DNA of 64,000 bases from Candidatus Shapirobacteria bacterium (GTDB lineage: Bacteria > Patescibacteriota > Microgenomatia > UBA12405), in NCBI GenBank assembly GCA_028704635.1, contig JAQWFB010000002.1, positions 64,693-128,692 on the forward strand, read 5' to 3'. The notes below the pieces were generated by a model. That model saw only the letters and a program-made list of their open reading frames with translations. It had not been told where the DNA came from and made no database searches. Below, piece after piece: positions 4,386 through 63,946 of this stretch (within the stretch, counting starts at the first letter, position 1; every line of letters starts with the position of its first letter). The position numbers and the translations under genes were made by a program.

Positions 4386-4775
4386 TTTCTATTTTATAAG
4401 TCTTAATTTTTATTTAAAAACCTTATTGTCTAATTTTACCATTAAAAAAAATTAAAAAGTTCTAAAAATTGTTTAAAAATAACCAAAAAAATATCCTATA
4501 TTTATTTTTTAAACCATAATCAATATAACTATATCACCTTTCACCCCTTTTATTATTACAAGATATAAATTCCAAAAACATACTTTCCATTAATATTTAT
4601 TATTTAGAATAAATAATTTACTCATAAATTATCAAATAAAATAGGCAAAATATCAAAAAACAACAACTCATAGACTAAAAAACAAAACTATCACTTATAT
4701 TGATTAATATTAAAACACAAATTTACAATTTTCAATTATAAATAAATATATTACAAGATTAAAAAAACAAATACA

Positions 4776-17318: not shown

Positions 17319-17420
17319 TCACCAACAATATCTACCTTTTATTAAAAAAAAATAAAAAAGTTATGTTAAAATACACCAATTGTTCAAAAGCGAACCTTAA
17401 AAACCAAAAAAGAAAGGAGA

Positions 17421-17719
17421 TTTTAGAAATGGCACAAAAAGTATTTATTATTTATCTCTCAAAAAACCATACCCCACTCGCATTTTCAGAAATAATTCAA
17501 CCAACAAATTCTTATGAAGAGAAAATTGCAAATATCAAAAATTTTCTTGAAAAAGAAAATCTCGATATTAAACAAGTTAAAGGATGTTCAAATATATCTG
17601 GAGCAATAGAAGCGTTTTCTATGGTTACTTTAGATTATATTGAGTTCTACAATATAACCAGTAATAGTGGTTTTTGTTCACCTTTTACCATTTGGAAATA
17701 TTTTGAATATCGAGAGTGA
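17421..17719 (+). CDS. Small hypothetical protein, paralog 1 of a tandem pair.
   Basis: An ATG is preceded by AAAGGAGA. The sequence EEKIANIKNFLEKENLDIKQVKG is shared with the next ORF. Confidence 0.5.
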
Positions 17720-17755
17720 ACTCAAAAAAACAATAATGAAAGGAGTGAGTATAGT

Positions 17756-18053
17756 GATGGACATAATTAATAAACTTTTTATTACCGTCTTTTATCCAGA
17801 AGACTCTATCCCTACTGGTTTTACGGAAGTAACCAAACCAGAAAATTTTTCTGTTGATGAAAAAATCGAAAATATCAAAAATTTTCTCGGCAAAACAGAA
17901 CTCGACATCAGATCATTTGATGACAAAGGTTTCACCCTTATAATTCTAAGCGGCGAGGATTTTGTCAACATTATCAATAACAGTACAACGATATGTAACA
18001 ATTTTTTTCAGCCTTGGCATATGTTCCCATCTAAAATAAACCTGGCAAAATAA
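17756..18053 (+). CDS. Small hypothetical protein, paralog 2.
   Basis: An ATG is preceded by AAAGGAGTGA. The sequence DEKIENIKNFLGKTELDIRSFDDKG aligns with paralog 1. Confidence 0.5.
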
Positions 18054-19608: not shown

Positions 19609-20472
19609 ATGCCCAACTTTAATCTAACTCTCTCTCCAGCTCAAATCGAATTTGTTTTAAAACCAGGAGTCACTATTATTCAAGCCTATAATGTCATCAA
19701 CGATTCTGGTTCATCAATTACCCTCAACACTGAAGTTTTACCCTGGATTCCCAGCGGCACCAACGGCTCTGTTAATTATAATCAAGCCGTCAATAACTCC
19801 AATATTGAATTTTCCCTTAACAATGCCAATATCCAACTCGGTCAACCCTTTACTTTAGCCGCTAATTCTAAACAACAATTAGTTTTAAAAATCAAAACTA
19901 ATTCAACAATACCACTGTCCGATAATTATTACACCTTTTTCGTTTTTCAAGATCAAAATATCACTACCGCTTCCAAGGATAACTTTAGCCAAGCTAGCGG
20001 TAAAATTGGCTCCCATCTTTTATTGACTGTTTCTGACACCGAAAACCCAAAAGTCGCCTCTGAAATTCAATCTTTTTCCATTTCTCCAAAAATCAAAGAT
20101 ATCTTTTTTAATCCCATCACTTTTGAAGGAAAAATAAAAAATAATTCCGATTTCTTTTTTAAGACTAACGGTAAAATTACCATCACTAAAAATGACCAAA
20201 TTATTAAAGAATTAGAACTAAGCCCTGATAATGTTTTAAACCATCACAGTCGAGATATTTTCTGTACTGATCAAACCACCTGTCAAATAAACCCACCTTT
20301 TTGGCCCGGTCATTATAAAGTTACTGCCACTCTCGATTCCTCTCTCAATGCCAAATCATATGAAACTTCATTTTACGTTTTGCCAATTTCTCCTGTTTTA
20401 TTTATATTACTCGTCGTCGGCCTGATTTTCGGGGTCAGAAAATTCAAATCAAAACCAATTCCTAAAATTTAA
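19609..20472 (+). CDS. Cell-surface protein with a C-terminal TM anchor and basic tail (DUF916/DUF3324-like architecture).
   Basis: 287 aa. An N-terminal beta-rich domain is followed by a C-terminal TM (VLFILLVVGLIFGV) and RKFKSKPIPKI. It pairs with the upstream secreted protein. The assignment rests on architecture, not a motif match. Confidence 0.45.
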   Translation: MPNFNLTLSPAQIEFVLKPGVTIIQAYNVINDSGSSITLNTEVLPWIPSGTNGSVNYNQAVNNSNIEFSLNNANIQLGQPFTLAANSKQQLVLKIKTNSTIPLSDNYYTFFVFQDQNITTASKDNFSQASGKIGSHLLLTVSDTENPKVASEIQSFSISPKIKDIFFNPITFEGKIKNNSDFFFKTNGKITITKNDQIIKELELSPDNVLNHHSRDIFCTDQTTCQINPPFWPGHYKVTATLDSSLNAKSYETSFYVLPISPVLFILLVVGLIFGVRKFKSKPIPKI

Positions 20473-20866
20473 AACCCTCTATTTTAATAAATTCTTTTAT
20501 TTCTTTTTCCACTTTTTCAATATTATTCAAAACATCATCATTATTTACTCTTATTGTTTTTATTCCACAACACTTTAGAAATTTATCTCTTAAAATGTCT
20601 CTTTCTTTTTTGACTATATGAGAGTCTCCATCAACCTCAATAATTAGACTTAATTCAGAACAATAAAAATCTGCAATAAATCTATTAATCGGCCTTTGTC
20701 TAGTAAATTTATACCCCAAATACTTTTTTCTTAATAATTTATTCCATAATATTTTTTCGCTCTCTGTTTCATTTTTACGATTATTTTTAGCCGCCCAAGT
20801 TAAAGAATCGCGATATTTCAAATGATATTTTTTAGTTTTAGCTTCAATAACAACATCTTTTTTCAT
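20462..20866 (-). CDS. DUF559-family (Vsr-like / PD-(D/E)XK) endonuclease-domain protein.
   Basis: 134 aa with KFTRQRPINRFIADFYCSELSLIIEVDGDSH...RDKFL...GIKTIRV, the DUF559 signature. The 3' end ends in GAGGGTTTTAAA. Confidence 0.8.
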   Translation of the reverse strand: MKKDVVIEAKTKKYHLKYRDSLTWAAKNNRKNETESEKILWNKLLRKKYLGYKFTRQRPINRFIADFYCSELSLIIEVDGDSHIVKKERDILRDKFLKCCGIKTIRVNNDDVLNNIEKVEKEIKEFIKIEGFKF

Positions 20867-27568: not shown

Positions 27569-27618
27569 ATCTAAAAACAGTCACGTTCTCCCTCTCCATG
27601 TTATCCTTTTTATATATA

Positions 27619-32565: not shown

Positions 32566-33140
32566 AAATTATTCCTGTCTCTATTCCACATTTCTGGATT
32601 CAATTTAATATATTCTTTGATTCTTAAATATTCCTTTTCGTTTCTAATAATATGTTCATAATAATTGCGTTGAAATAATCGTCTATCAAATTTTGGCCAA
32701 TTATTTATTTTTATATTTTTAATATATTTATTTGTCGTTACGGTTTTAAACCATTGAATTATATTTCCAACCGTTGTCGTTGTAGGGGTGGACCGATGTG
32801 TCCGCCCTGGTGTTAATAAATCATGTGTCCGCCCATTTCCAATAATTATTATTCCATGAATATGATTCGGCATCACCACAAATTCATCCAATAAAACATT
32901 TTCAAAATGTTTTGGAATTTCATTCCACCAATAATCAATTAATTTCCCTGTTTCATTTATATTAGGGCAGACACACCGGTCTGCCCCTACATCACAAAAA
33001 TAATTAATTCGATTTTGGGTACAAATTGTTACAAAATAATATCCATTATTTGAATAATCAAATCCATTCAATCGAATCGTTCGTCTGTGACAATTAATTG
33101 TAATCATTATTACATAATTGTTTTGTTTTGGGCGATTCAT
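32562..33140 (-). mobile_element. REP-associated tyrosine transposase (RAYT / IS200-like TnpA_REP) gene carrying an in-frame REP hairpin.
   Basis: The ATG at 33138-33140 (minus strand) sits 6 nt after GGAGG. The protein has YFVTICTQNR (beta1), PNHIHGII (HuH) and WQRNYYEHIIRNEKEY...YIKLNPE (catalytic Tyr helix). This collinear motif order is the TnpA_REP (YafM-family) layout. Codons for VGADRCVCPN are the REP at 32963-32990. Confidence 0.75.
32963..32990. repeat. REP-like palindrome (family 1) lying inside the RAYT ORF.
   Basis: TAGGGCAGAC-acaccg-GTCTGCCCCTAC. Confidence 0.8.
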
Positions 33141-33204
33141 GAATCCCCTCCCCATGTTATCATTTTTATATATAAAACCTCGTATTTTAAACCCACCCAG
33201 TCTT

Positions 33205-33252
33205 CGACCACCCTCCCTTTTCAAGGGAGGAAGGGGCCCTTTAGGGAAGATG
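33205..33252. repeat. Degenerate solo copy of the DUF559-associated double-hairpin element.
   Basis: CCTCCCTTTTCAAGGGAGGAAGGGGCCCTTTAGGGAAGATGGGTTTTAAAC has the same structure as 61452-61497. Confidence 0.6.
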
Positions 33253-38466: not shown

Positions 38467-38494
38467 GTAGAGACGCACGATCGCACGTCTCTAC
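38467..38494. repeat. REP-like palindrome (family 2): GTAGAGACGCACGATCGCACGTCTCTAC.
   Basis: Stem GTAGAGACG/CGTCTCTAC. Other copies at 38765-38792, 39047-39074, 41267-41294 and 63919-63946. Confidence 0.85.
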
Positions 38495-39046: not shown

Positions 39047-39074
39047 GTAGAGACGCCAGATCTGGCGTCTCTAC
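39047..39074. repeat. REP-like perfect palindrome (family 2).
   Basis: GTAGAGACGCCAGATCTGGCGTCTCTAC. Confidence 0.85.
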
Positions 39075-39457: not shown

Positions 39458-39871
39458 CTATCTAAACGTCACTGTCACCGTTCCATTTAATGGCACCCCA
39501 CCAACCTGTGCCGTTAATTCATACTGTTGGGCCGTGTTCGATGTTAATTCAAAAGTTGCCTTACCCAAGCTATCCGTTGCTCCATCTAACTCTCCTAGCC
39601 CACTCAATTGAACTGATCTACCAACAATACCCTTTCCATCACTATCTAAAACAAAAACATTCACAATACACTTCTCATGACCATCTGCCTTAGCCATCAT
39701 TTTTTGACCAATCAACAAAGAATTCTTAATCGAAACTTTTCGAACCGTACTTGCTTTAGTTAAAGTTACTAATGCCTTGGGAATCACAGATGTTCCTAAA
39801 TAAACCACTGCTGCCATAGCCACTAAAAAACCAATACCACTGTATAATATGTTTTTTTTATCAGCAATCAT
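39458..39871 (-). CDS. Small membrane-anchored Big_1-like Ig-domain protein, paralog of 27155..27568.
   Basis: ADGHEKCIVNVFVLDSDGKGIVGRSVQLSG...ATFELTSNTAQQYELTAQVGGVPLNGTVTVTF aligns with the ORF at 27155. The start is taken at MIADKK. Confidence 0.5.
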   Translation of the reverse strand: MIADKKNILYSGIGFLVAMAAVVYLGTSVIPKALVTLTKASTVRKVSIKNSLLIGQKMMAKADGHEKCIVNVFVLDSDGKGIVGRSVQLSGLGELDGATDSLGKATFELTSNTAQQYELTAQVGGVPLNGTVTVTFR

Positions 39872-40442
39872 CTTAATAAATAATAGCACAAAAAAACAAT
39901 ACAAGCACTAAAACCATCCATTTAGCAAAAAACTAGCTTAACTGCTAACCTTTAATAAATTTAAAAACACACCTAAAAACAGGCATATTTAATCTAAAAA
40001 TTAAACCTAAAAATCAAAAAAAATCCCAAAACTAATTTTTTTTCCCAAAAAGGATACAAATTACCTCCCTCTAACTCTTTATATATCAATATAATTCATC
40101 GTATCTTAAGCAAAATTTACTAAAAATTAATTCAATCTTAACTTTTAATTTAAAAAATTTTTATTTTTTTACTAAAAAAATCACTTCCTAATTAGCTTTT
40201 TGAAATCATCTTTGTACCCCTAAAGTATATCATTTAATATCTTTTAGAGTTAACCGCATTTCTCCGCATTAATAAATTTTGTCAGCTCGTATTAAGTTGT
40301 ATTTTGATTTCATTTATACCACATTGATAGTAGGTGCACCACCTGTGTTAACTATCGTGAAACTATTTTTTTTAGAAAAAAAATAAAAAAAATTGAAAAA
40401 CATACTATCAAAACATATCAGAAAAACGTCAAAAACGCCCTA

Positions 40443-40471
40443 TTGACAGGCTTTTTCTAATAGTAGATATT
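40443..40471 (+). promoter_or_regulatory. Candidate sigma70-type promoter upstream of the giant-gene operon.
   Basis: TTGACA (40443-40448), then 17 nt, then GATATT. It lies in a roughly 700-bp AT-rich leader. Confidence 0.25.
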
Positions 40472-40640
40472 ATTATTATATTAATTATTAATATATATAA
40501 ACCATGTATAAATCATATAATTTTGAACCTAAATCATTATCACCGCAAAAAAAATTTAATCTTAATCAGATGGCTGAAAGATTAGTTCCATTTTTAATCA
40601 TTGCTACCACCTTTGTTTGGCTCTGGAAATAGTCCTTTTT

Positions 40641-41099
40641 ATGACCGCCCCCATCATTGTCTCCTATCAAAACTGGCTCAAATCCAAGTCCTACTCTGAG
40701 GCCACCATTCGCAATTATCTTGCCGACCTCAAAAAATATTTTCTCTTCACTAATTCCAATGTTGATCAAGTCACCGACAAAATTTTCGATCAAGACAACT
40801 TGTCTTCCTATTTCCAAAACATCAACCAAGACTCCAACTACAAACGTTTTCTTGCTTCTCTTTCTAAATTCTTCCAATTTGCCTTAGACCAACACCTAAT
40901 TTCTGTCAATCCTTTCTCCAAAGCCCTTAAAGTTGAACCCGAAATTGATCTCGAAGATGTTATCAAACTATATCAACAACAATTAGAGACCAAAAATTTT
41001 TCTCTTTCGACTATTCGAAACTATATCAATGACATTCATCAATTTATTAATTGGGCACAAAATGAAAGTCGCCCTGTTAAGGAAGATGTCACTAAGTGA
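40641..41099 (+). CDS. Protein made of two phage-integrase N-terminal SAM-like (core-binding) domains, with no catalytic domain.
   Basis: YQNWLKSKSYSEATIRNYLADLKKYFLF and LYQQQLETKNFSLSTIRNYINDIHQFINWAQ match the [YF]..L...S..T...Y...L..F..F pattern of the XerC/D N-domain. The ORF track opens at TTG 40617; ATG 40641 is preferred. Confidence 0.5.
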   Translation: MTAPIIVSYQNWLKSKSYSEATIRNYLADLKKYFLFTNSNVDQVTDKIFDQDNLSSYFQNINQDSNYKRFLASLSKFFQFALDQHLISVNPFSKALKVEPEIDLEDVIKLYQQQLETKNFSLSTIRNYINDIHQFINWAQNESRPVKEDVTK

Positions 41100-41114
41100 C
41101 AGAGGGTTTATTCA

Positions 41115-44100
41115 ATGGATTTAAATAAATTATTTAATCAATCCAGGTTTAACGAATACGCTGCTTTTCTAAAAAGCACCAATCTTTCTGATGCCAGCAT
41201 CCAACGTAAACTTTCTTCTCTTGCCTCTTTTCAAAAATTTCTGATTAAGAAAAAATATGTCTCTTTCGTAGAGACGCACGATCGCGCGTCTCTACTTTCA
41301 ATAAGCGAACATGCCGATTCACTCATACCAAAAACCTCACTTTTTTCCAATCTAAAATCAAAAATAAAATTACCACCCGTCATTGACGATTTACGATCAA
41401 ATTTTCTCTTTCGCTACATAGTTATCTTTTCTCTTTTTGCTATTAGTGCCGGTTTAGGTTTTACTCTTTATCGCCAAGCTGTTCTTCAATCACAACAAAA
41501 TCTCGCTTATTCCACTGCCTCAGCCATGATTACCGGTGGCCGCTTTTTATCTTTTCAGGGTCGTTTAACCGACACCGCCGGTAATCCTATAATATCTTCG
41601 ACAAGTATAGTTTTTAAACTATATCCATCAGTCGGATCTGGTACTACTCTATACACTTCTCAAACCGGTAACAGTCAAACCGTCGTTCCAGATGAGAATG
41701 GTATTTTCTCTGTTACTATCGGTAGAAGCCATGGTACCACTATTCCTTCCTCTGTCTTTACTGAAAATGCCGAAGTCTGGTTAGAAATCACTGCTGGGGG
41801 TGAAACAATGAATCCCCGTCAACAAATTGCTACCGTTGGTTACGCTTTAAATTCAGAAACTTTACAAGGCCTTCCCCCATCTGCTAGCGGTACCAAAAAC
41901 ACAGTGCTAGTTATTGATGGTTTAGGTAATCTTAACCTTGGAGAAACCTCTCCTACTATTAAATCAACTTCTGGCACTCTCGGTATCGAGGGTCAAGCTG
42001 TTCTAATTAAAGCTTCTGATGGTTCCGGCGGTAATATTACCATCAACCCAGATAGTAATGGCGTTATTAACTTAATCACTGAGGGTACTGGTGCCACTGG
42101 TTTTATCAATGCTACTAATGCCAACCTTGCTTCTGGTAATTTATTTAATGCCACCATAAATAATCTTAATCGTGGCTACAATTTCATTAATTTCAGCAAT
42201 TATAGTGTTGGCACTAGTATTGTTTCCCGTTTTTCAGTTGATGCCTACGGCAACACCATTATTGGTAATAATTTAACTATCGGAGGCACATTTGTATCAG
42301 TTGGATCTACTAATTTGGTTACTAAACTAAACTCTGATCTACTTGATGGTCATCATTCTTCATATTTCCTTAGCGTTGGTGATACTGGATCACTTCCTTA
42401 TGTCAACGATGCTACCAACACTACCCTTACTCGATCTGGCACTTCTGGTCCTTATACCCTAGGTCTTAATCTTAATAATACTAACACTTGGACGGCTATT
42501 CAAAATTTAAGTGCTGGTGCCACTATCTCCAACTTATCTGTTGGTGGTACTTTTATTTCAGTTGGTTCTACTAATTTAGTTACTAATCTTAATGCTGATT
42601 TATTAGATGGTAATAATTCCACTTATTTTGTCAATATTGGCCAAACTGGTAATTTTATTACTACTATTACCGGTGTTGGTATTTCTGTCTCCCCTACCTC
42701 TGGTACCAGTAGAACACTTACTAACATGGGCATTATGAATGCTACTAATGGAACTTTAACCAGATCTGGTTCCATTGGTTCTTATACTTTAGGATTAAAT
42801 CTCAACAACTCTAACACTTGGACGGCTATTCAAAATTTAAGTGCTGGTGCCACTATCTCCAACTTATCTGTTGGTGGTACTTTTATTTCAGTTGGTTCTA
42901 CTAATTTAGTTACTAATCTTAATGCTGATTATTTAAACGGTCTTCCTTCTAGTAGTTTTGTTGGTATTGGTTCCACTGGTAATTTCATCACTAATTTAAC
43001 CAATGGAGTTGGTATCACCATCACTGGTTCTGGTTCTTCTCGTAATATTGCTTTTGATTATGGTGCTTCCTTGTTAGCTACTGGCAATAAGATTGGGCTA
43101 AATTTTGGATCAATTAATACTTGGACGGCTAAACAAACTTTTGGCAACGCTGCTATTGGTGGAACTTTAGCCTTAACCCAAGGAGCTCAAGATGGTTATA
43201 TTTTAACCAGCGATGCCAGTGGTAATTCTTATTGGGCACCCAACACTGGCGTCGGAACAATCTATTTTGCTGGCAGTGGTTTAACTCTAACTGGTACTAC
43301 TTTTAAGCTTGGCGGTGCCCTTACTGAAAATGCTAATTTAACCATCGGTAACACTTCTGCTTTCTTTATCAATTCCACCACCGGCAACGTCGGCATTGGC
43401 ACCACTAACCCAAATAGGGCATTAGAAATTATGAAACAAGTTGATGGTGAAGTTCAATTAAGATTAGGTAATGGTCCAACTACATTTTGGGATTTAGGCA
43501 GAGATGGTTCAGACGGATATTTTAATATTAAAGATCAAAACGGAGCTAAAAGATTAGTTATAAACGATATTTCTGGCAACGTCGGCATTGGCACCACCAA
43601 TCCAACTTCAAAATTAACAGTTGCTGGTAATGTCAATATTTCCACCTCTCTCAATGTCGGCACCTCTCTTGTTGTCGGAACCAGCATTGAATTAAGCAGC
43701 AGCGGTAATAGATCTCTCAGTTATTACGACTCATCCACTAACGGTTATTTCACTCAAATGCAAACCACTGCCACTGGCGGTTATGGAACTTATGGCCCAG
43801 TTTCTGGTGACTGGGCTCTTTATAATCGATTTAGCGGTGCCAACACTCGTGGTTGGATTTGGCAACTTGGCACTGTCAATGTCGCTGGACTAAATGGCAA
43901 AGGTGATTTTCAAAACGCTGGTAATTTAACAGTCGGTGGCACTCTAAGTATTGGTTCTGTTCCAACTGCTTCAGATAATAATACTGTCTTAACTAGTGTT
44001 GGTGGAGTTGTTAGTTCAATTAATACTTCTGCTTGGGATAAAAATGCTTCAGATGATTTAACCACTTCTACCAATCTCTTTGTTATTAAAGCAGATAGTG

Positions 44101-47100
44101 GTACAGCCGAAACTCTCAATGTTGGTAACACTATTAACTTTGTTGGTGGTCTGGGATTAGGTTCTACCGTATCCGCTACTGACACTATTACCTTTAATAT
44201 TGGTTCTTCTGCTGGTATCTCTGTTAATACTGATACCATTGGTATCAATATTGGTCTTACTGGTTTAGGTTTCTCTGGTACTAAATTAATTAATACTGGT
44301 TTAGTTGGTGTTAGTAATAGCACTCTTACTCGTATTGGCAGTAATGGCAATTACACTGTTGGACTTAATTTAGCTAACATTAATACTTGGACAGCACTAC
44401 AAACATTTGGCAATGCTACTGTCGGTGGAACGTTAACCATGACTGGTACTAATGTTGGCACTGGTACTACTGCTTTATTTATCGCTTCCAATGGTACTGT
44501 TACTAAAAGAGCTTTAGGTACTATGGCTTTTGACTCTGGCACCTACGACAATTACAATCATTGGAAATTACAAACTAATAGTAATGGCACCACCAATGTT
44601 TTAACTGGTAATACTGTCAATTTTATTAATGGTATTGGCATCTCTTTAGTTCAATCTGGTTCTACTATTACTGTCAACAATATTGGTACTGGTACCACTT
44701 ATGCTGCTGGCGTTGGTTTAAGTTTAAGTTCATCAAATATATTTAGTATTGATTATGATTCCACCCTTGATTTGAATGGTAATAAAATTAGCCTTAATAC
44801 CGGTAACGCCAACACTTGGACAGGATTACAAACATTTAATGCTACTGGTGCTCCTTTTGCTGTTGGATCTAGTGTTTTAGTCACTAATCTTAATGCTCAA
44901 TATCTTAATGGTATTTCTTCTAATGGTTTTGTTGGTATTGGCCAAACTGGTAATTTTATTACTACTATTACCGGTGTTGGTATTTCTGTCTCCCCTACCT
45001 CTGGTACCAGTAGAACACTTACTAACATGGGCATTATGAATGCTACTAATGGAACTTTAACCAGATCTGGTTCCATTGGTTCTTATACTTTAGGATTAAA
45101 TCTTGGATCAAATAATAGCTGGTCTAATGGTATTGGTGTTAGTGGAACAACTAATCTAACCAATGCTTTAAATGTTGGTGGAACAGTCTACTTTGGTAGT
45201 TACGTTGGGATTGGAACAGCTAGCCCAAACAAACAACTTCAAATTGGATCCGCTGCTAATAATTCTTCTATTTATAACGATTATATTGGCAGTATAAATA
45301 ATATGGTTTTGGAATCCAGAGATAGTAATGACAGTGGTGCTTTTGTTTTCAGATCTAATAGCGATGTGGGTACTTCTGATTTAGTTCAAATCACTCGTCT
45401 CGGTTATGTCGGTATCGGAACCACCGCTCCAGGCTACAAACTTGATGTTTCTGGCACCGGTCGTTTTACTTCTAATTTAACAGTTGGTGGCACTTTAGCA
45501 CTAACTCAAGGTGCTGCTAATGGCTATATCCTTACTTCTGACACTAGTGGTAATGCTAAATGGTTACCTAATACAGGTATCGGTACCACTTATGCTGCTG
45601 GTGTTGGTTTAAGTTTAAGTTCATCAAATATATTTAGTATTGATTATGATTCCACCCTTGATTTGAATGGTAATAAAATTAGCCTTAATACCGGTAACGC
45701 CAATACTTGGACAGGATTACAAACATTTAATGCTACTGGTGCTCCTTTTGCTGTTGGATCAAATACTCTTGTAACTAATCTTAATGCTCAATATCTTAAT
45801 GGTATTTCTTCTAATGGTTTTGTTGGTATTGGCCAAACTGGTAATTTTATTACTACTCTAACTGCTGGCACCGACATCTCTATCACTGGTTCTGGTGTTG
45901 GTCGAACCATTAATGACACTTCTACTTTATCCACTGTTACTGGACGAGGATCTTCTACTTCTACTATGCTTTCTCTTCTTGGTGGAGCTTACTTTGGCAC
46001 TGCTGGTGCTACTCAAGGTGTTTGGAAGGCTAATGGTACGGTTGGGATTGGAACAACTAATCCTATATACGGTAAAGTAGAAATAACCACCACTGCTTCC
46101 AATACTGGTGGTTTAAGCCTTTATCGAGGCACTGGTAGCACTGCTAGATCTTGGATTACTTCCAATGATGTTTGGTTGATGCAAAGATCAACGAATGATA
46201 ATGCTGGTATTGCTATTGATGCTTCCGGTTATGTCGGTATCGGCACCACCGCTCCAGGATACCGATTAGACGTTTCTGGTACCGGTCGTTTTACTTCTAA
46301 TTTAACTGTCGGTGGTACAGTTTCTTTAACCGGTACTAATGTTGGCACTGGTACTACTGCTTTATTTATCGCTTCCAATGGTACTGTTACTAAAAGAGCT
46401 TTAGGTACTATGGCTTTTGACAGTGGCACCTACGACAATTACAACCATTGGAAATTACAAACTAATAGTAATGGCACCACTAATGTTTTAACTGGTAATA
46501 CTGTCAATTTTATTAATGGTATTGGCATCTCTTTAGTTCAATCTGGTTCTACTATTACTGTCAACAATGTTGGTGCTGGTACCACTTATGCTGCTGGTGT
46601 TGGTTTAAGTTTAAGTTCAAGTAGTGTTTTTAGTATCAATTTTGGCTCTGCCAACACTTGGACAGGATTACAAACATTTAATGCTACTGGTGCTCCTTTT
46701 GCTGTTGGATCTAGTGTTTTAGTCACTAATCTTAATGCTCAATATCTTAATGGTATTTCTTCTAATGGTTTTGTTGGTATTGGCCAAACTGGTAATTTTA
46801 TTACTACTATTACCGGTGTTGGTATTTCTGTCTCCCCTACCTCTGGTACCAGTAGAACACTTACTAACATGGGCATTATGAATGCTACTAATGGAACTTT
46901 AACCAGATCTGGTTCCATTGGTTCTTATACTTTAGGATTAAATCTTGGATCAAATAATAGCTGGTCTAATGGTATTGGTGTTAGTGGAACAACTAATCTA
47001 ACCAATGCTTTAAATGTTGGTGGAACAGCCTACTTTGGTAGTTACGTTGGGATTGGAACAGCTAGCCCAAGTTCCAAATTAGATGTCGCTGGAGCCATCT

Positions 47101-50100
47101 CTTTAATCCAAAATTATCCATTAATTATGAAAAGTGCCTCTGGAACCTACGGTGGCGCTATTCGATATGACACTCTTGGTGGAGAATTTATGACCATGGC
47201 CACTAAAAATTCTGCTTCAAAATTATTATTTGCCACCGGTTTTGATCTTACCGCCAGCCAAGGTTCTAGCAATATTCTTCCTACCACTGTTGGCCTAGCT
47301 ATTTACAACAATAATGTCGGCATCGGCACAACTAATCCAACTTCAAAATTAACAGTTGCTGGTAATGGTAATTTCACTGGCAATCTCTCTGTTGGTGGAA
47401 CAGTCACTCTCTCATCCTCTGTTGCCTCTAATACTAGTGACACCACTGCTTTAATGATTAATGGTAGTAATGTAGTTACCAAAAGAACTCTTGGTGATCT
47501 AGCTTTTCAAAATAATGCTTCTCTTGGTTGGATTGCTAAAACAGCTTCAGGTAACTTAACAATTGGCACTGGTACTACTCTTAACTTCACTGGTATTAAT
47601 GGTTTAACCACTGCCAATGTTGGTTCTTCTCAAATTACTTTTAGTTTAGGTGGTTTCCTTTCTCAAAATACTGATATTGGTTTCTCTGGTTTCTCTCTTA
47701 GTTTTTCTGATGGTGGTAATACTTTAGTTTCATTTTCTTCTACTGGTAATACTTTCTATAATCCAACTACCTTTACTTCTAGTGGTGATGTATCTATTGC
47801 TTATGATTTGAATTTTACTAATTCAAATAATTCAAATATTAATACTGCTGGTCCTTTCTCTATTAATGCTGGTGAAGTCTTTAATTCTAGTAATTTAACT
47901 CTCCAAACTTATAACTCTGGAAAAATAATTCTTAATTCTAGTAATCTTTACACTGATGGCACCTATTTCGGTATTGGTACTACCAATCCAACCAGCACTC
48001 TTAGTGTTAATGGTAATGCTGATATTAATAATTTAGTTATTGATGGCACTTCTGGCACTGGATTAAATATCTCTAATAACAGTCTTACCACAGATATTAG
48101 TCTTCAGAATGGTGAAACTATTGATAATGACACTAATGGAAGAATTAACTTCTCTATTAGTGATCTTTATCTTAATAGTAGTATTTTCTTAACTTCAACT
48201 AGATTATTCCAAGCTGGTAATGGTACCGTTACCACTCCCGCTTATTCCTTCTCTTCTGACACTAATACTGGCATATACCGTATTGGTGAAGATAATATTG
48301 GTGTTGGTACTAGCGGAATTTTACGTCTTACTGTAGCTGGTAATGGTAATGTTGGTATTACTAAAAATCTTAATGTGGGTGGCACCTTAACCACCACTAC
48401 TCTTAAAGCTACCAATGCTCAAGATACAACCAAAGTTACTAATTTAAATGCTGACTTGTTAGATGGTAATGATTCCAGTGTTTTTACCACTCATAATGAA
48501 GTGACTGATTTAGGAACAGTTACTTTTTCCTCAGGTTCAGCTGTTACCACTGCCACCTTTATTACTGAATTAGAAAACAAAGGTGCTTTTGATAATTATC
48601 ACAGTATAATGAAAGCTAGTTGGGATTATTCCGGCAATAGCGATATTACTGACACTGGTTTCGGAACTTTCGAATTAGCAGGATGTGTTGTTGAAACTTG
48701 GACAGATGATTCAAGCGATGTCACTAGAGGTAATATCACTGTTCGAATCACTAGACCAACTACTGGATCAGGAGGAGGTCAAATTTTGGTTTATAACGAC
48801 CAAGGATCAACCTATAGTCCCGGGTGGAGACAAATTTGGAATTCTAGTACTGACGGTTCCGGTTCTGGCCTTGATGCTGATTTATTAGACGGTCTTCATT
48901 CAACTGCTTTTGAAGTCCCATTAACCTTTACTAATGGTTTAACCAGAAGCAGTAATGATGTTCATTTTGGTGGTGCTCTTACTGAAAATACCAGATTAAA
49001 CATTGGCAATACCGAAGTTATGTTCTTCAAATATGCTAATGGCAATGTCGGTATCGGAACGACTAACCCATTAGCCAAATTAAATGTTTATGGTCAAAGT
49101 TTATTTGGAACTACTAGAACCGGAGTTGGAGCTGCCAGTTCTGTTATAAATTTAGGGTCAGATGAATATATTAATTTCGCATGGAGTACGAGTTACCCAA
49201 CTGGTAATTATCATAGAATTGGTAAAGATAGAACTTTTGATAATTATGCTCTATCCTATATTTCTACCGGAGCCGACGCCACTACTAATCTAGCACATGT
49301 ATTCCGAACCACCAACACTGATTCAGCATTAGCAATTACGGCTGGTGGTAATATTGGTATCGGTACCACCGCTCCAGGCTACAAACTTGATGTTTCTGGT
49401 ACCGGTCGTTTTACTTCTAATTTAACAGTCGGTGGCACTTTAGCACTAACCCAAGGTGCTGCTAATGGTTATATTTTACAATCCGATGCTAATGGTAACG
49501 CTAAATGGATTGTTCCCTATGGTGTTGGTGGTACTAATAGTCTTTCTGCTGGTACTGATATTTCTATTACTTCTGTTGGTATTGGTCGAACCATCAACAA
49601 CACTTCTACTTTATCCACTGTTACTGGACGAGGATCTTCTACTTCTACTATGCTTTCTCTTCTTGGTGGAGCTTACTTTGGTACTGCTGGTGCTACTCAA
49701 GGTGTGTGGAAAGCTAATGGAACAGTGGGAATTGGGACTACTAATCCAAGCGGTGGAAAACTTCAAATATTTGGAGAAGGTGCAGCTAATGGTTTAAGTA
49801 TTTATAACGGCACCGGTGACACACTCAGATTATACCGAGTCAATAACGTAGGTATTCTAAGCAGAGGCGGAGTCGATACTGCCGGAATTGCCATTAATGT
49901 TTCTGGCAACGTCGGCATCGGTACAACTAATCCAGGAGTAAAATTAACAGTCACTAGGGGAGGGGCAATTTATGACGCCGCTCCAACCCTCGGCAGTGGC
50001 ACTGTTGGAGTATTTTCACTACTCTCTGGTAATGGTCTTTATGGGTTGTATAGCGGTATTTCCTCAAACGGCGACACCTGGCTTCAAAGTCAGAGGAATG

Positions 50101-53100
50101 ACGCCACTACTGCTGCATATAATATATTACTTAATCCCAGTGGTGGTAATATCGGCATCGGCACAACTAATCCTCTTTATAAGCTTCACGTTTCTGGTGA
50201 TGCTTTAATTTCAACTCGATTAGGTATTGGAGTTACCAATGCTTCTTATGCGTTAAATGTTTCTGGTAATGGTAATATTACTGGCAAATTAAACATTGGT
50301 ACCACCACTACCACCACTTCTCTTAATTTAACTAATACGGCAGTTGGTGGTTCTTCTATTGCTGCTTTCTTAAGTGGTAATAGTGGTTTAATTGGTTACA
50401 TCAGTACAGTTGGTTGGGATAAGAATACCGCTGATGATTACACCTCTTGGACACTTCAAGCCGATGGTGCTAACGGTTCTTCGATTACCTCTGGGTCTAC
50501 AGTTAATTTCGCTCATGGCACTAATATCAGTTTAGTTAAATCTGGTAATACCATTACTATTAATAATACTGCTTCTCCTTACACTGCTTCTAATGGTTTA
50601 TCTTTGGTTGGTCAAGATATTAGACTTGGCGGCACCTTAACTCAAAATACCGATATTGGTTTCTCTGGTTTCTCTCTTAGTTTTTCTGATGGTGGTAATA
50701 CTTTAGTTTCATTTTCTTCTACTGGTAATACTTTCTATAATCCAACTACCTTTACTTCTAGTGGTGATATATCTATTGCTTATGATTTGAATTTTACTAA
50801 TTCCACTGCTTCTTATATTCGATCTCAAGCTCCTCTATATATTCAAACAGAAAGTCCATATGCTAATTTAGATCTTAACTTAACTGCTGCTAATGCCGGC
50901 CAAATCTATTTAAATTCAAATGTTCAGGCTATGGCTAATTTAACTGTTGGTGGTACCTTCACCTCAGTTGGTTCCACTAATTTAGTCACTAATCTTAATG
51001 CTCAATATCTTAATGGCATTTCTTCTAATGGTTTTGTTGGTATTGGCCAAACTGGTAATTTCATTACTACACTTACCAACGGCACTGATATTAATATCAC
51101 TGGTTCTGGGACTAGTAGAACTATTAATAATACTTCTACCTTATCCACTGTTACTGGACGAGGATCTTCTACTTCTACTATGCTTTCTCTTCTTGGTGGA
51201 GCTTACTTTGGCACTGCTGGTGCTACTCAAGGTGTTTGGAAGGCTAATGGTACAGTTGGAATTGGGACGACTGCTCCAGGATACAAACTGGATATAATCA
51301 ATAATTCAGCCACTCAATTACGAGTCGCATCAGGCGTAGGGCAATTGCAAGGTGGAATTAGATTTGGAAATTACGATGCAACTCAAACCGCTGATATTTT
51401 ATTTACAGCCTCAGGACAAAACAGTTTAGATATTAGAACAAATTATAGTAGTACAAGCAATAAGATTACATTAAGCCCAGGCACTGTCACAGCAATGACT
51501 TTATTGGGCTCCGGTTATGTCGGTATCGGTATTAATCCACTCTATAAACTTCATGTGTCTGGTGATGCTTTAATCTCTACTCGATTAGGCATTGGAGCCA
51601 CTAATGCCAATTTTGCTTTAAATGTTGTTGGTAATGGTAATTTCACCGACTCTTTAAGTGTTGGAAAAACCTTAACCACCACCACCCTTAAAGCTACTAA
51701 TGCTCAAGACACTACCGTTATTACTAATTTAAATGCTGATTATTTAGATGCCCAAAATGGAAGTTATTATGACCAGCGAGTCTACACTAGCACTAATAAT
51801 TATTTAGGTGGTTATTATGTTAGTGGTGGAAGCGAAAAACCAAATAATACTATTTTTGGTGCTGGAAAATTAAAGCTAGCCATGTTGTCGGGTACTAATC
51901 TTGGTTTTGGTGGTAGCTGGAACGATGTTTTATGGTTAAGTTCTTATACCGGCGGTGATGTTAAAGGAAGTTACGCCATCATTGCCGACAAATATTCTGA
52001 TAATCTTTATTTCTCTAGACAAGACTATGATAGTGGTACTTGGGGCACAGGTAATAAATTATGGCATTCTAATAATGATGGTATCGGTTCTAGCCTTAAT
52101 GCTGATTTATTAGATGGTCTTCATGCATCTGCTTTTCTAACTACTCTAACTGGTGGCACCGACATCTCTATCACTGGTTCTGGTGTTGGTCGAACCATTA
52201 ATGACACTTCTACTTTATCCACTGTTACTGGACGAGGATCTTCTACTTCTACTATGCTTTCTCTTCTTGGTGGAGCTTACTTTGGCACTGCTGGTGCTAC
52301 TCAAGGTGTTTGGAAGGCTAATGGTACAGTTGGGATTGGAACCACCAATCCTCTTCAAAAGCTTCAAGTCGCCGGAGATATTAATATAGAAAGTGGATCT
52401 GGAATAAGAATTAATAACACTGCTACTTCTGGGTATTATCTCCGAGGCAATGGCACTAGATTTGTTTCTTCAGGTATCCAAGCCGCAGATGTTCCAACAT
52501 TAAACCAAGACACTACCGGTTCTGCAGGCACATTATCACGCGAAGACAACCGAACTATTTCACCAAGTGAATTAACTGCTGGAAAATTAAAATTCGGTTT
52601 CACTTCCTACACCAATAACGATACCGGCCCTTATGCAGACTTCTTACATTTTAGATCCTATACTGATGCTACAGGTGGTAATGACAACCTTTTAGTCTTA
52701 AACAAGACTGATTTTGGCATGAGGTTATACCAACAAACTTGGGGCAGTGCTTCTGCATATTCTACTTACAAAGATATAGCCTTAGTCGATAACGGTGCAG
52801 CTTTAAATTATCTTCCAAAATTTTCTGGAGTTGGCACTAATGTGAGAGTAACCAATTCCTCAATCTTCGACAATGGCAACGTCGGCATTGGCACTACTAA
52901 TCCAAGTTATAAACTAGACATTCAAAATACTAGTACTAGTATGGCTGTTAATATAGGATCGGTAGCTCAAACTCTATACAGCGATCTAGTTTTACACACC
53001 AATGGTGGTTCTGGTGAAATATTTAAAGCTGGTTCCGCTTACACTTCTTGGGGTGGTCCCTCATCTCTTAATATTTATAACAGCTCTGGCCCAATTGCTT

Positions 53101-56100
53101 TCCATTCCAACGGTACTGTTAATTCTATGTTTTTATCCACTGCCGGTAACTTAGGTATCGGTACTACTGCTCCAACCTCTAAATTACATGTCATTGGTAA
53201 CGGTAATATCACTGGTAATTTAACAATCGGTGGCACAGCTACCATCCCCAGAATTTTTATTAATAGAACCAGTAATACCGCTTCTGGTTTAAGTTGGTAC
53301 AGTCCTTCTTATACAGCTTGGTCAGAATATATGGGTCCAGCTGGCACAGCTTCCCAAGGACCAACAGGTAATATTACTGCTCCAACAGGAACATTAGTTA
53401 CTACTTGGGGTTTACGTAGTTTTATTGAAAATGCTAGTGGATATGGTTGGACATGGGAATCTGGAACAAGTGGCACCACCGCCCCCTCAATCGTAGCCGA
53501 ACTTTCATCCAATACTGGCAATTTTAAAACTATTGGAGCTGGAAATTTTGGCGGCAATCTTACTGTAGCCGGTGAAACTTATCTTAACGGTACTGTTCTC
53601 GAAGGAGACTCAAAAACCATGTTCCGTTATTCTGATAGTTATCTTAGACTCAACGAAGACAACGATTTTGGTAATGGTATCTGGACTGGAAATAGTAACT
53701 ATATGACTGGATCAGGATATATATCTCTTGGTTCAAACGGCGGCACAACCACTGGATCAATGTATTTATACGGCGGTGCTTACACCGGCACAAACTTAAT
53801 TAAACTTGATTCCAGTAGCACTTCTGCTATTTCTTATTTCAATGCCGGCAACGTCGGCATCGGCATCACCAATCCTCTTTATAAATTATCCGTCGGCACT
53901 TCCATCGGTGGTGATATTAATGGTAATTTAATGGCCCTTAGATTTTTAGACATTGGCAACACTCGTTATGGTTTCATCCCAAACAACACAGCATCCAATA
54001 AAAATTCTTTGTCTCTCACTTACACTGGTTCCATCAGATTTAATTACAATGACATCAGTAACTCTCATATCATTGCCGGTCCTGCCTCTCGTATCCAAAG
54101 TTTTTCTAATGGTCTTTTACTCGGCGTCAGTTCTACTACCACCGGCAATGTTGCTGGTTGGGATAATGATCTTTTCTTAAAAACGAATGGCAACGTCGGC
54201 ATCGGCACCACTGCTCCAGGAAGCAAATTAGATGTTGACGGAAATATTACCCAATCAGTCACTCATGGTAATAATATGAAATTATGGTTATCTGCAGCCA
54301 GAAATGGTAGTGGAACTGGAGAAATTGGTCTCTATTCATGGATTAGTGAACCAGGTATGACTTGGACTGGAGGGGGTATTGCTCGCAATATGTACAATAA
54401 TACTAGTTTTCCAAGAGTAAACACGGCACTATCTGGACAAATGTTACATTTCACCGAATCTGGAAACATTGAATTCGTTCTTACTAATACTTCAGGAACA
54501 CAAATTACCCCTATGACCATCCAATACAATAGTGGCAACGTCGGCATCGGCACAGCTAGTCCAAATCAAAAACTAGTTGTCACCGGAGGAAATATTGCTA
54601 TAGAGCAGAATTATCAATTTAATTTAAGCGTTGGTGATATTGGAGCTGCCTATTTAACTTATCCAAATTCTACAATAGGAGCAAAGCTTTATAGTTATTA
54701 TGATATCAACCTAACGACAAGATCAGGCGGTGGACTTACTATTGATGGTGCCACCGGCAACGTCGGTATTGGCACCACTGCTCCTAGAAGCAAACTAGAA
54801 GTCGTTTCTGGTACTCCAAATACCGATGCTGATTTATCTGGTACTGCTGGCAGTTTCAATTCTGCCACTCCAACTGGTCAAAGTTCAACTTTAAGTATAG
54901 AAAGTAATGATACTATAGCTGTTAATACTGGAGGTGTTCTTGGTTTTGGTGGTCGATACTCAGGCACTGCCTACGCCAATTGGGCCTCAATCAAAGGTTT
55001 AAAAGCCGATGGAACTTCTGGAAACTATGGTGGTTATCTTTCATTTTGGACTCGTCAAACCGGAGCTGGAAGTGTCGAAAGAATGAGAATTTCAGATGCT
55101 GGCAACGTCGGCATCGGCACAACTAATCCTGGAACCAATCTTGACCTTAATGGCACTTTCCGCCTCAATAACAATATATACCTCAATTCCGGCATTGCTA
55201 ATTTTTCAAATCTTGGTGATGTTGTTAATTTTAATAAATACCTCGGATCTAATACTACTCCCTCTTGGTCTACTGGGACTGCTGGTGGTACTGCTCGTTA
55301 CTCTCATTCTTCTGTTCTCTATAATGGTAAAATCTACTCTTGGGGAGGATCTAATGGTGCTCCTTTAAACACTGTTGACATCTATGATATTGCCTCTAAT
55401 ACCTGGTCTACTGGTACTGCTGGTGGTACTGCTCGTAATTATTATTCTTCTGTTCTCTATAATGGTAAAATCTACTCTTGGGGAGGATCTAATGGTTTTT
55501 CTTTAAACACTGTTGACATCTATGATATTGCCTCTAATACCTGGTCTACTGGTACTGCTGGTGGCACTGCTCGTTACGCTCATTCTTCTGTTCTCTATAA
55601 TGGTAAAATCTACTCTTGGGGAGGATATAATGGTTCCTTTTTAAACACTGTTGACATCTATGATATTGCCTCCAATACCTGGTCTACTGGTACTGCTGGT
55701 GGCACTGTTCGTTACCAACATTCTTCTGTTCTCTATAATGGTAAAATCTACTCTTGGGGAGGATTTAATGGTTCTAGTTTAAACACTGTTGACATCTATG
55801 ATATTGCCTCCAATACCTGGTCTACTGGGACTGCTGGTGGTACTGCTCGTTACTCTCATTCTTCTGTTCTCTATAATGGCAAAATATATTCTTGGGGAGG
55901 ATCTAATGGTTCTAGGTTAAACACTGTTGACATCTATGATATTGCCTCTAATACCTGGTCTACTGGGACTGCTGGTGGCACTGCCCGTTACGGTCATTCT
56001 TCTGTTCTCTATAATGGCAAAATATATTCTTGGGGAGGAACTAATGGTTCTTCTTTAAACACTGTTGATATTTATGATATTGGTAATCGTCAAAACATTC

Positions 56101-59100
56101 TTTCCATTCAAGAAAATGGACAAGATATGCTTAATTTCACCACTAATTCCACTCTCTTCACAAACTCTGGTCGCTTCTCCATTATGGGTGGCAACGTCGG
56201 CATTGGCACCACCGCTCCTTCTGCCCGCCTCACTGTCCTTGGCGATGGTAGTTCCGCCACTTCCGATTTTACTTTATTAAACAACAATGGTTCCGTTAAT
56301 CTCGAAATCCGCACTGGACTAACTGCTCTCTTTAATACTTTTATTGGAGTTGGAGTTGGTAGTTCCAACACCACCGGCCACTACAACACCGCTAATGGCA
56401 GTTATTCTCTTGCTTACAACACCACCGGCTACTACAACACCGCTAATGGTTTTCAATCTCTCTACTCCAACACCACCGGCTACTACAACACCGCTAATGG
56501 TTTTCAATCTCTCTACTCCAACACCACCGGCCACTACAACACCGCTAATGGCAGTTATTCTCTCTTTTCCAACACCACTGGCCGCGACAACACCGCTAAT
56601 GGTTTTTATTCTCTTTTTTACAACACCACCGGCTCCAACAACACCGCTAATGGTTTTTATTCTCTTTTTTACAACACCACCGGCTCCAACAACACCGCTA
56701 ATGGTTTTTATTCTCTTTTTTACAACACCACCGGCTCCAACAACACCGCCATGGGTTACAATTCTCTTGGTTCCGGCACCACCCTAAATTCCAACATCGG
56801 TCTTGGTTATTATGCTGGCTATAAACTCTCCGTTGGTTCCAGTAATATTTTCATCGGTAACAATAATGGTGCTACCGGTTCTTATGACAACCGTCTCTAT
56901 ATTGGTAATGGTTCAAATCCAATTATTTATGGTGATATGTCCACTGGAAACATCGGCATCGGCACCACCAATCCCCTCGAAAAATTAACAATTTCAGGAA
57001 GTGGTGCTGACGTACTTAGTCTAAAAGGTAGTGCTGGTACTAGATTTATTTTTAATGAGACTTGGAGTGGAACAGCTGATATTTTAGGAATTCGCAACAG
57101 TAACACTTCTAATCCTCAAGTTGTTCTTGATTGGAATGGCAACGTCGGCATCGGCACCGCCAACCCTCTTTTTAAAACTGAAATCTATGGCACTACACAA
57201 CTAACAGGTAATTTAACTGATGCTGGTAATCGAGGTAGTATGCTTGCTCTTAATGCAGCTGATTCAAATTATGGTAGTGGTGGAGCTTTACTTTTTGGTA
57301 ATCAACAATCCGATATAGCTAACTCTATCGGTTGGGCTGCAATTAAAGGATTTTTAATAAACGGAAATGGTAATACAACAGGTGATCTTGCTTTTTCTAC
57401 TAGAAACTCAACAGCAGATACTGCCTTAACCGAAAGAATGAGAATTTTAGCAACTGGCAATGTCGGCATCGGCACTGCTAATCCAGGAACTTTATTAAAT
57501 ATCTCCCAATCTATTCCAACCGGCACAGGAGCAATACCTACAAATAGCGGTTTACTTTTAGATTCAAATTCAAATAATTACCTTACCTTTAGAAATACTT
57601 CAGATAACGGATCTTATGCTGGTTTACAATTTTTAGATAATAATGTCGGGGGTTATATTGCTTTTAGAAATGCTATTGCCGGAGGAGCACATACTGACAG
57701 TATGGTATTAGGAACCTATCAAGATTTCTATTTCCAAACTGGAGCAAGTGGTATCGTGGATGGCAAAACTGATGTAATGACAATAAAACAAGGTGGTAAT
57801 GTCGGCATCGGTACCACTAATCCTGGCACCCGATTTGCTGTTGCTGGTCTTACTGGTACTACTGCTGGAAGCTACCTCCGTTATTACAACAACGATTTTT
57901 ATTACTATTCTTCCTCTGCTCGTTATAAAGATAATATTGAGGTTTTTAATGATGATTTCTCTAAAATCCTTAATATTGAACCTAAAATCTTCACCGACAA
58001 AGTCTCAGGCGAAAGAAATATCGGTCTTATCGCCGAAGAAATGGATGCCGCCGACCTAAAACACTTAGTCACTTATAAAAATGGCTTACCTGACACTGTT
58101 GAATATCAACTCGTTTCTGTCTACCTTCTTCAACTCGCCAAACAACAAAAACTCCAACTTGATAATCTTAATAATGACCTCACTTTAACTTCCACTGGCC
58201 AAATTAATGTCAATATGAATATTTCCGATGAAGTCCTCTCTTCTCTTGGTTATAATGGTGCCAAAAATGAAATCGAATCTGCCACCTATTCCATTACTGA
58301 TACTTTAGGCAACACCGTTTCTCGTATTTCTCAATTCAGCGAAATCGCTTCCGCTAAAATCAAAACTGGTCTCCTTTCCGCCACCAACATCATTACTAAA
58401 AACATGGTCGCTGAAAAAATCGTCTCTCCAAAAGCCACCATCAATCATCTTATTTCTACTGACATCCAAACCACTTCTGTCACCACCGAAGAACTAAATG
58501 CTCTACGATCTACGATCAACGATCTAACAGCTAACACTGCCACCGTCTCCACTCTTTATGCTGACAATATTATTTCCAAAGAAGGTTCCATTGGTGAATT
58601 AATGACCGCCAAAGTCAGTGCCCTCCGTGACGAACTTAAACAACTTGTAGAGACGCAACATGATGCATCTCCATCTGGAACCATCACTGGATCATCAATT
58701 CTTTCTCAATCTTCCGGCTGGGCAATGAATATTGCCAGTGATTCGGCAAAAATTACTGGTGACCTCGAGCTCGGCAACAGTCTCATTGTCGGCGCTAAAC
58801 TCACTGTCAACGGTGACACCCAACTCGGCAATGCCTTTATTTCTGGCACTTTCACTGCCGGCGAAATCGCCATTAAAGACAACTTTATCGAAACCACCAA
58901 CACCGCTCTCTATATCCAGCCATCACAAACTGGTTCAGTCCACATCATGGGCGACACTTTAGTCATCGCTGAAGACGGCAACATTCAAATCAATGGCAAC
59001 CTCACTGTTTCTGGCTCTCTCATGGCTAACCTCATTGTTGCCGACCAAATCCAAGCCAACAAATTAACTGCCAATGAAGTCTCTTCTAATGAAATAAAAA

Positions 59101-63918: not shown

Positions 63919-63946
63919 GTAGAGACGTTCTGCAGAACGTCTCTAC
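63919..63946. repeat. REP-like perfect palindrome (family 2).
   Basis: GTAGAGACGTTCTGCAGAACGTCTCTAC. Confidence 0.85.

Follow-up and report, generated by a model that had tools for sequence, protein, structure and literature searches.

The core-binding (CB) domain of tyrosine recombinases such as XerC/XerD, XerA, IntI and lambda Int (PF02899, PF13495 and PF13102) is a small four-helix fold, and a few described systems use such a fold, or a comparable layout, in other ways. FliZ of E. coli and Salmonella (NCBIfam TIGR03823) is a regulator that carries an integrase core-binding-like domain without a catalytic domain. ToxR, CadC and TcpP are bitopic regulators, which possess a cytoplasmic N-terminal DNA-binding domain, one transmembrane (TM) helix and an external sensor. 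In Nanoarchaeum equitans, the genes for reverse gyrase and alanyl-tRNA synthetase are split. The locus analyzed here lies in a stretch of 64,000 nucleotides (nt) of contig JAQWFB010000002.1 from a Candidatus Shapirobacteria bacterium, referred to below as the window (G+C content 36%). It consists of a small gene followed directly by the gene of a giant surface protein, and the two open reading frames (ORFs) together encode two CB domains, the second of which is divided between them. The domain type is known; the architecture that uses it is new, and a gene fission inside a domain is an unusual element of it. The locus contains the following features:

40641..41099, plus strand: small gene, 152 amino acids (aa), encoding CB domain 1 and the first half (helices A-B) of CB domain 2.
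40653..40889, plus strand: complete SAM-like/core-binding domain 1, residues 5-83, four helices, recognized by Pfam PF02899, AlphaFold2 (AF2) and Foldseek.
40950..41066, plus strand: N-terminal half of domain 2, residues 104-142, helices A' and B', motif S.STIRNYINDI.QFI.W.
41097..41099, plus strand: in-frame TGA stop of the small gene, inside domain 2, also present in the related loci L004 (87% identity), L084 and L085.
41101..41106, plus strand: Shine-Dalgarno-like AGAGGG, 8 nt upstream of the giant ATG, read from the sequence and of presumed function.
41115..59438, plus strand: giant gene, an ORF of 6107 aa.
41115..41258, plus strand: C-terminal half of domain 2, giant residues 1-48, helices C' and D', motif ..Y..FLK....S.AS..RKLSSL.SFQKFL.KK.
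41259..41402, plus strand: variable cytoplasmic linker, residues 49-96, which differs in length and carries palindromic-element insertions in homologues.
41403..41471, plus strand: single predicted TM helix or signal anchor, residues ~97-119, hydrophobic FLFRYIVIFSLFAISAGLGFTLY preceded by a K/R-rich segment.
41547..41573, plus strand: conserved ectodomain start, LSFQGRLTD motif, invariant in the homologue alignment and used as the family anchor.

The small ORF contains one complete CB domain. Domain 1 scores 47.2 bits against PF02899 (Phage_int_SAM_1; cut-off 22.3), with residues 8-84 covering profile positions 3-82 of 83, and its helices are placed by AF2 at residues 5-15, 20-36, 51-61 and 67-83. 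Domain 2 is encoded in two pieces. PF13495 matches residues 112-141 of the small ORF over profile positions 6-35 of 85 only, and the AF2 model of the small protein forms a helical hairpin in this region (residues 104-117 and 122-142; predicted local distance difference test, pLDDT, 94-95), after which the chain ends. The invariant columns of this N-half are T124, N127, Y128, N130, D131, Q134 and I136. The other piece opens the giant protein, where residues 11-47 match PF02899 positions 47-83 of 83 with 20.3 bits, which is below the cut-off when taken alone, and where R31, K32, L33, S34 and S35 are invariant in 10 homologues. The two half-matches, 6-35 in the small ORF and 47-83 in the giant, sum to one domain. 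The motif S..T...Y...L..F occurs once per half-domain, four times altogether, and four half-motifs correspond to two domains, the second broken by a stop codon. An earlier, sequence-only reading of the window had counted three. It had rightly recognized integrase-type SAM-like domains; of the two copies that it assigned to the small ORF, one is a complete CB domain and the second just helices A-B, and the third domain that it placed at the giant N-terminus is a SAM-like piece that represents half a profile.

The fold comparison agrees with this assignment. The top matches of the AF2 model of the small ORF in the Foldseek search of the PDB were the N-terminal domains of Brujita Int, XerA, IntI and XerD and the CB domain of lambda Int, with probabilities of 0.9-1.0 and E-values of just 0.05-0.9, which are modest because the domain is small and helical. 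A PDB-sequence profile search gave a single weak match (9i5v_14, E = 0.008) and was less informative than the comparison of folds. In NCBIfam, the half-domain pattern was repeated against the N-termini of XerC and XerD, and the equivalog models, whose cut-offs are 335 and 330 bits, scored 45 and 38 bits; these scores fall so far short because nothing in the locus matches the catalytic domains of these proteins. The search for the PF00589 Phage_integrase catalytic domain took all window ORFs of at least 100 aa except 17363..18053 and 20462..20866, and the domain was found neither in the small ORF, nor in the 6107-aa giant, nor in the other scanned ORFs; the sequence-only reading had likewise seen no catalytic domain with the SAM-like ones. 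The module is therefore judged not to be a tyrosine recombinase. SAM-like families were the only ones that matched it, and no OmpR-type winged helix was found.

The likeness to the described systems is partial in each case. With recombinase CB domains the module shares the four-helix fold and the S/T..T...Y/R...L..F signature in each half; unlike in the recombinases, no catalytic domain is present, the tandem domains lead to a TM helix and a giant ectodomain, and the second domain resides on two polypeptides. FliZ likewise has a CB-type module free of a catalytic domain (the small ORF reaches 18.7 bits and E = 0.00099 against TIGR03823, not the cut-off of 159.3), but FliZ consists of one soluble domain, which is neither in tandem nor split and has no membrane partner. 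Standalone integrase-like domains (PDB 2kd1, i.e., BC_1272, and 2kob), which were among the Foldseek matches, also lack a catalytic domain; these are single domains of unknown function, neither membrane-linked nor split. The predicted topology, with an N-terminal fold of the nucleic-acid-binding type, a single TM helix and an extracytoplasmic domain, resembles that of ToxR-type proteins, in which, however, the DNA-binding domain is an OmpR-type winged helix and the periplasmic domains are small, whereas the fold here is of the CB type, the ectodomain comprises about 6000 residues and DNA binding is a conjecture. As in Nanoarchaeum equitans, fission in an ultra-small, host-dependent lineage would have left two polypeptides that must reassemble; in contrast to Nanoarchaeum, the pieces are adjacent and appear translationally coupled, and the cut falls in a helical domain of ~90 residues and recurs at one loop. 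The module thus resembles FliZ, ToxR-type proteins and the Nanoarchaeum split genes and is a member of none of these groups.

The position of the cut is conserved among relatives. A scan of species-representative genomes yielded 332 relatives, of which 80 loci were retrieved, and 84 loci were classified with iterated profiles for each half. The halves lie in different ORFs in 52 of the 84 Patescibacteria loci and in one uninterrupted ORF in 24, and the cut in the 52 split loci falls in the same inter-helix loop (B-C) of domain 2. Homologues of the giant N-terminus from Shapirobacteria and Woesebacteria (44-60% identity) have a common start, beginning with the C-terminal half-domain, and directly upstream in their contigs lies a SAM-like gene of 124-153 aa that ends just past the N-half motif. 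In the fused form, known from Collierbacteria and other Patescibacteria, the order is domain 1, linker, domain 2, linker, TM helix and the ectodomain start R.LSFQGRLTD. The fused protein P0021 matches the Pfam profile completely over domain 2 (positions 1-80 of 83); its AF2 model contains two four-helix domains (pLDDT 80-90), disordered linkers and a helix at 282-309 equivalent to the TM helix, and Foldseek again matched it to recombinase CB domains. A search with the small ORF returned 472 clusters at 50% identity (E up to 0.001). Among the 149 best cluster representatives, 121 have at most 260 aa, many of them stopping within a few residues of the N-half motif, and the other 28 are long proteins (up to 3710 aa) matched at their N-terminus. 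When L032, the closest natural fusion, was used as the query, only small-ORF homologues and no fused protein were found.

The genes are adjacent in all 52 split loci, and no other gene stands between them in 50. In L057 an NYN-domain gene (E = 2.7e-19; 2044-2880) separates the N-half ORF from the giant, and in L064 a 177-aa ORF (1195-1728; weak 23S_rRNA_IVP-like match, E = 0.003) lies between the halves. The gap between the halves is 154 nt in L063, and such gaps range over 154-836 nt across loci. A GxxExxY-like ORF, judged by eye only, was noted at the split site of L055 (~3500-3990), like L057 and L064 a distant relative. Small selfish genes may use the split loop as an insertion site, a possible cause of the fissions. 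One Collierbacteria locus, L081 (700-1500; P0026), is broken elsewhere, by a frameshift within helix A of domain 2; this may have arisen independently or may reflect an assembly error.

A start codon was created at the cut. The codon aligned with Met1 of the giant is ATG, GTG or TTG in 49 of the 52 split loci and CTG in 3, although NTG makes up just 7.5% of the L/V/M/I codons of these genes, and Q/N/K/D-type codons occupy the equivalent position in fused loci. In the window, the small and giant ORFs are in the same reading frame, (41115-40641) mod 3 = 0, so domain 2 is interrupted by the TGA and five codons; the junction reads TGA-CAGAGGGTTTATTCA-ATG, with a spacer of 15 nt. The AGAGGG motif in this spacer is kept in L004, L026, L006, L033 and L028. 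For the small gene itself, the start at ATG 40641 is backed by homologues, and the mechanical ORF opens at TTG 40617. Codons 2-125 of the giant contain no in-frame ATG, GTG or TTG; the remark in the sequence-only reading that no alternative in-frame start follows the linker palindrome (41268-41295) holds for canonical starts up to the TM helix. An alternative code in which TGA is a sense codon was considered and is ruled out, as 10 of the 36 window ORFs terminate in TGA and the reading frame of the giant runs through 6107 codons without one. A scan of 39900-41500 found promoters no better than in shuffled sequence, one promoter-like site (TTGACA-17-GATATT, 40443-40471) and no plus-strand terminator between the two ORFs.

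Both halves are maintained by selection. For the N-half, the ratio of nonsynonymous to synonymous substitution rates (dN/dS, Nei-Gojobori method, window against seven relatives) was 0.12-0.33; the C-half gave 0.07-0.18, values to be compared with 0.04-0.22 for domain 1 and 0.03-0.16 for the ectodomain start. Six pairs yielded a ratio for the linker that joins the C-half to the TM helix: 0.57-0.79 in five of them and 0.21 in the sixth. Both halves are thus under purifying selection and neither is decaying, and the linker is close to neutral. An unsplit form exists, both parts are intact and selected, and the parts co-occur, which is the pattern of split genes. In a quick neighbor-joining (NJ) tree of the ectodomain start (170 residues), all loci of the Shapirobacteria/Woesebacteria type fall in one wholly split clade, save for the re-fused L032, and fusion prevails in the other clade, where splits (L063, L057, L064 and L055/L058) are scattered. 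The scattered splits, together with the split clade, indicate fission at one loop more than once. The +1 overlap appears to be the ancestral state within the split clade, in which -1 and in-frame forms arose several times; the window arrangement of stop, 15 nt with AGAGGG and ATG is a derived version that L004 also has.

The explanation that we favor, and hold to be probable, is that a tandem-CB tail has fissioned into two coupled cistrons whose products reassemble domain 2 non-covalently. In the ancestor, a tandem CB module without a catalytic domain would have stood, as part of one polypeptide, on the cytoplasmic side of the membrane anchor of the giant. In the window lineage the gene would have been cut within domain 2, in its B-C loop, the upstream cistron yielding a soluble 152-aa protein composed of domain 1 and helices A-B, and the giant itself starting with helices C-D. 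Translational coupling of the cistrons, with the start overlapping the stop, would hold in most relatives and deliver the two products together. The two helical hairpins would then most probably reassemble non-covalently into domain 2, which would dock the small protein, its first domain intact, on the tail of the giant and restore the ancestral tandem module. Such docking on the tail is probable for the small protein, and the adaptor pair with a soluble partner suggested by the sequence-only reading comes near to it. Reassembly is suggested by the single hydrophobic core in fused relatives, by the core motifs kept in both halves, by the adjacency of the genes and by the re-fusion in L032.

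Several points weigh against this explanation. Three loci have CTG alone at the start position, and most of the overlapping starts lack an obvious Shine-Dalgarno sequence, which puts the efficiency of initiation in doubt. The tree is a quick NJ tree and the number of independent fissions is accordingly approximate. The contact between the two hairpins is something that we infer, and the tail may bind proteins instead of DNA. The UGA-C stop context terminates weakly in E. coli, and with this context and a shared frame some read-through product may arise in the window.

It is unlikely, in our estimate, that the split is real and the halves no longer reassemble, with the small protein acting alone through domain 1 and the hairpins having taken up separate roles, for example as a dimerization helix or a secretion or targeting signal. 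In its favor, it is the conservation of both halves that is seen, and not contact between them, and the hairpin of the small protein is modeled confidently by AF2 on its own. However, each half keeps the core motifs of the fused domains, the genes have remained neighbors in every split locus, nearly always with no other gene between them, and L032 became fused again inside the split clade, which argues that the halves are still compatible.

Programmed recoding would yield one polypeptide, through UGA read-through in the window and +1 or -1 frameshifting in the relatives, the small ORF then being the true N-terminus of the giant. We consider this quite improbable, although the window ORFs share a frame across a UGA-C stop, 44 relatives have a +1-frame giant overlapping the small ORF, and a joined product is viable, as the fused relatives show. 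The junctions are mixed. Among the 52 split loci whose junction is clear, 44 have the giant shifted by +1 from the frame of the small ORF and 5 by -1, the latter overlapping in the ATGA/TTGA manner or by 13 nt; the remaining 3, namely the window, L004 and L026, keep the frame past a stop. The giant start overlaps the small-ORF stop by 1-32 nt in 41 of 49 split loci, most commonly by 8, 11, 14 or 17 nt or in the ATGA manner, and lies 4-49 nt downstream in the other 8. L026 has tandem stops, TAG-TGA, and in L057 and L064 recoding cannot join the halves because whole genes are inserted between them. Programmed recoding is recognized by a conserved signal and the lack of an independent downstream start; here no shared slippery motif was seen beyond the effect of coding in the giant's frame, frames and overlaps vary, and NTG stands at the common aligned position in 52 of 52 split loci and not in the fused ones. 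No single recoding mechanism accounts for such varied junctions; independent, mostly coupled initiation does.

The sequence-only reading had also allowed for relics of a tyrosine recombinase broken by insertion of the giant gene. Recombinase-type domains without a catalytic partner are what such decay could leave, but this origin is very unlikely, as no catalytic domain was found among the scanned window ORFs, the 24 fused loci lack one too and pass from domain 2 directly to the linker, TM helix and ectodomain, both halves are under strong purifying selection, and the family occurs in hundreds of genomes. The window stop is not a sequencing error: a single stop between two same-frame ORFs could raise the suspicion of a sequencing or assembly fault, for which there is next to no likelihood, since the window sequence is identical over 3.46 kb in the assemblies GCA_028681165.1 and GCA_028689945.1, L004 shares the TGA and the spacer, the stops of L026 are doubled, and ~50 independent metagenome-assembled genomes (MAGs) are split at the site.

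With the fission of a tandem-CB tail taken as the favored explanation, the function of the module can be discussed in tentative terms. By analogy with FliZ-like CB proteins that lack a catalytic domain and with ToxR-like DNA binders anchored in the membrane, it may bind DNA at the membrane, for tethering, sensing or signaling, a possibility that we rate as appreciable and well short of even. It is favored by the DNA-binding fold, by the basic helix-D motif (N)RKLSSL(R/K), which is kept, and by the isoelectric point (pI) of 10.1 of the C-half. If the module binds DNA, it would provide a physical link from a giant extracellular fiber to the nucleoid or to gene regulation. A novel and rather doubtful idea is that the split CB domain serves as a reversible docking device, in which a soluble, DNA-binding CB protein is held at the membrane by completing the half-domain of the giant and is freed or moved upon host contact. 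Were this true, it would constitute a new transmembrane link between surface attachment and DNA in episymbiotic bacteria that belong to the candidate phyla radiation (CPR), used for gene control or for the handling of chromosomal or incoming DNA.

The results define a module that a family of giant Patescibacteria surface proteins carries at the cytoplasmic N-terminus and that is apparently undescribed: literature searches, including the full text of the 'giant genes' preprint, gave no account of this architecture. The lack of an obvious precedent, on which the sequence-only reading had remarked, therefore applies to published descriptions and not to the architecture, which is common in Patescibacteria, as the 332 relatives and 472 clusters demonstrate. 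The module is widespread, and the giant proteins that bear it likely matter for host attachment, in organisms whose cultivation on their own is not yet possible. Recognizing it also corrects a systematic misannotation, in which pieces of giant surface proteins and their partners are named as recombinases; fragments stand in databases as 'site-specific integrase, partial', 'site-specific integrase' or 'XerD'. Moreover, a small helical domain that is naturally, recurrently and under selection split over coupled genes offers a system for studying gene fission, fragment complementation and the birth of start codons. Two observations concern the database records of the family. P0012 carries a precomputed Pfam accession, PF27132.1, that is absent from the Pfam copy used; it may be a newer curated family to which these small proteins belong. 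The MAGs of L006, L009-L013, L017, L030, L056, L063, L072 and others are labeled as non-Patescibacteria ('uncultured Gammaproteobacteria', 'Pseudomonadales', 'Methanoperedens', 'Bathyarchaeia', 'Spirochaetia', 'Vitreimonas') despite a Patescibacteria-type locus, probably through bin contamination or default taxonomy labels.

The linker of the giant carries a palindrome of the repetitive extragenic palindromic (REP) type, and the window contains six copies of this family against 0 expected, usually with a palindromic center:

41268..41295, no strand assigned: REP-type 28-bp palindrome GTAGAGACGC-N8-GCGTCTCTAC, in frame (VETHDRASL), with a variant copy at the orthologous site of L004.
13107-13134, 38467-38494, 39047-39074, 41268-41295, 58647-58674 and 63919-63946: the six REP copies.

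The copy at 41268-41295 does lie between the SAM-like segment and the TM helix, as had been noted from the sequence; it is a tolerated passenger in a nearly neutral linker and not a boundary marker between modules. The giant protein contains one intact and one degenerate copy in frame, and another copy is read in frame within the editing domain of LeuRS (aa 243-252, SRDAMHGVST). Translations of palindromic elements also occur in the linkers around the SAM-like domains of P0001, P0002, P0003, P0007, P0008, P0027, L024 and L028, for example 'VETHCVRLS...RDAYNASL', 'VQTPDRASLQ', 'LLRGAIRKTEGFK' and 'PFFKGSCPEPAEGLRGF'. The disordered linkers seem to tolerate repeated insertion of such elements. 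The 10-N8-10 geometry of the palindromes resembles a recombinase core site, and, as a still more speculative extension of the docking idea, the tandem CB pair might recognize the genome's own REP elements.

The ectodomain of the giant extends for ~6000 extracellular residues beyond the TM helix, and no Pfam family was matched in the first 3000 residues of the protein. The giant gene lies within a surface-protein island, which includes TPR proteins, and the remaining window consists of housekeeping genes (RuvA, RuvC, MurB, MreB, LeuRS, ComEA, ComEC and PGI), with no tyrosine recombinase among the scanned ORFs. The features recorded in the ectodomain and its surroundings are as follows:

55263..56051, plus strand: Kelch beta-propeller, giant residues ~4717-4979, Pfam Kelch families, E = 4.5e-63.
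57912..58058, plus strand: weak Peptidase_S74 (endosialidase chaperone) match, residues ~5600-5648, 20.7 bits against a cut-off of 22, to be read as a hint only.
39458..39904, minus strand: divergent neighbor, a small Big_1/Invasin_D3 protein, also found in L001-L003, L084 and L085.
27598-32565 and 33268-38406, plus strand: two LamG/DUF2341 proteins of 1655 and 1712 aa, with six LamG_3 repeats each.
32562-33224, minus strand: candidate REP-associated tyrosine transposase (RAYT) of 220 aa between the LamG giants, NF047646 E = 1e-14, 54.6 bits against a cut-off of 80, with a weak Pfam Y1_Tnp match.
27155-27568, plus strand: second small Big_1/Invasin_D3 protein.
25194-26192, plus strand: WxL-interacting-protein-like ORF (PGBD-like).
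61063-61509, plus strand: DUF559 (endonuclease-like) ORF, E = 4.8e-28, a short way downstream, past the giant gene and a TPR protein.

The 220-aa ORF is, on its profile match, a candidate for the RAYT of the REP family described above. In the housekeeping part of the window, ComEC is present as two minus-strand ORFs, 14891-15664 and 15761-16756, with Lactamase_B in one and the Competence domain in the other, and ComEA (16710-17318) adjoins them; this may be another split gene in the genome.

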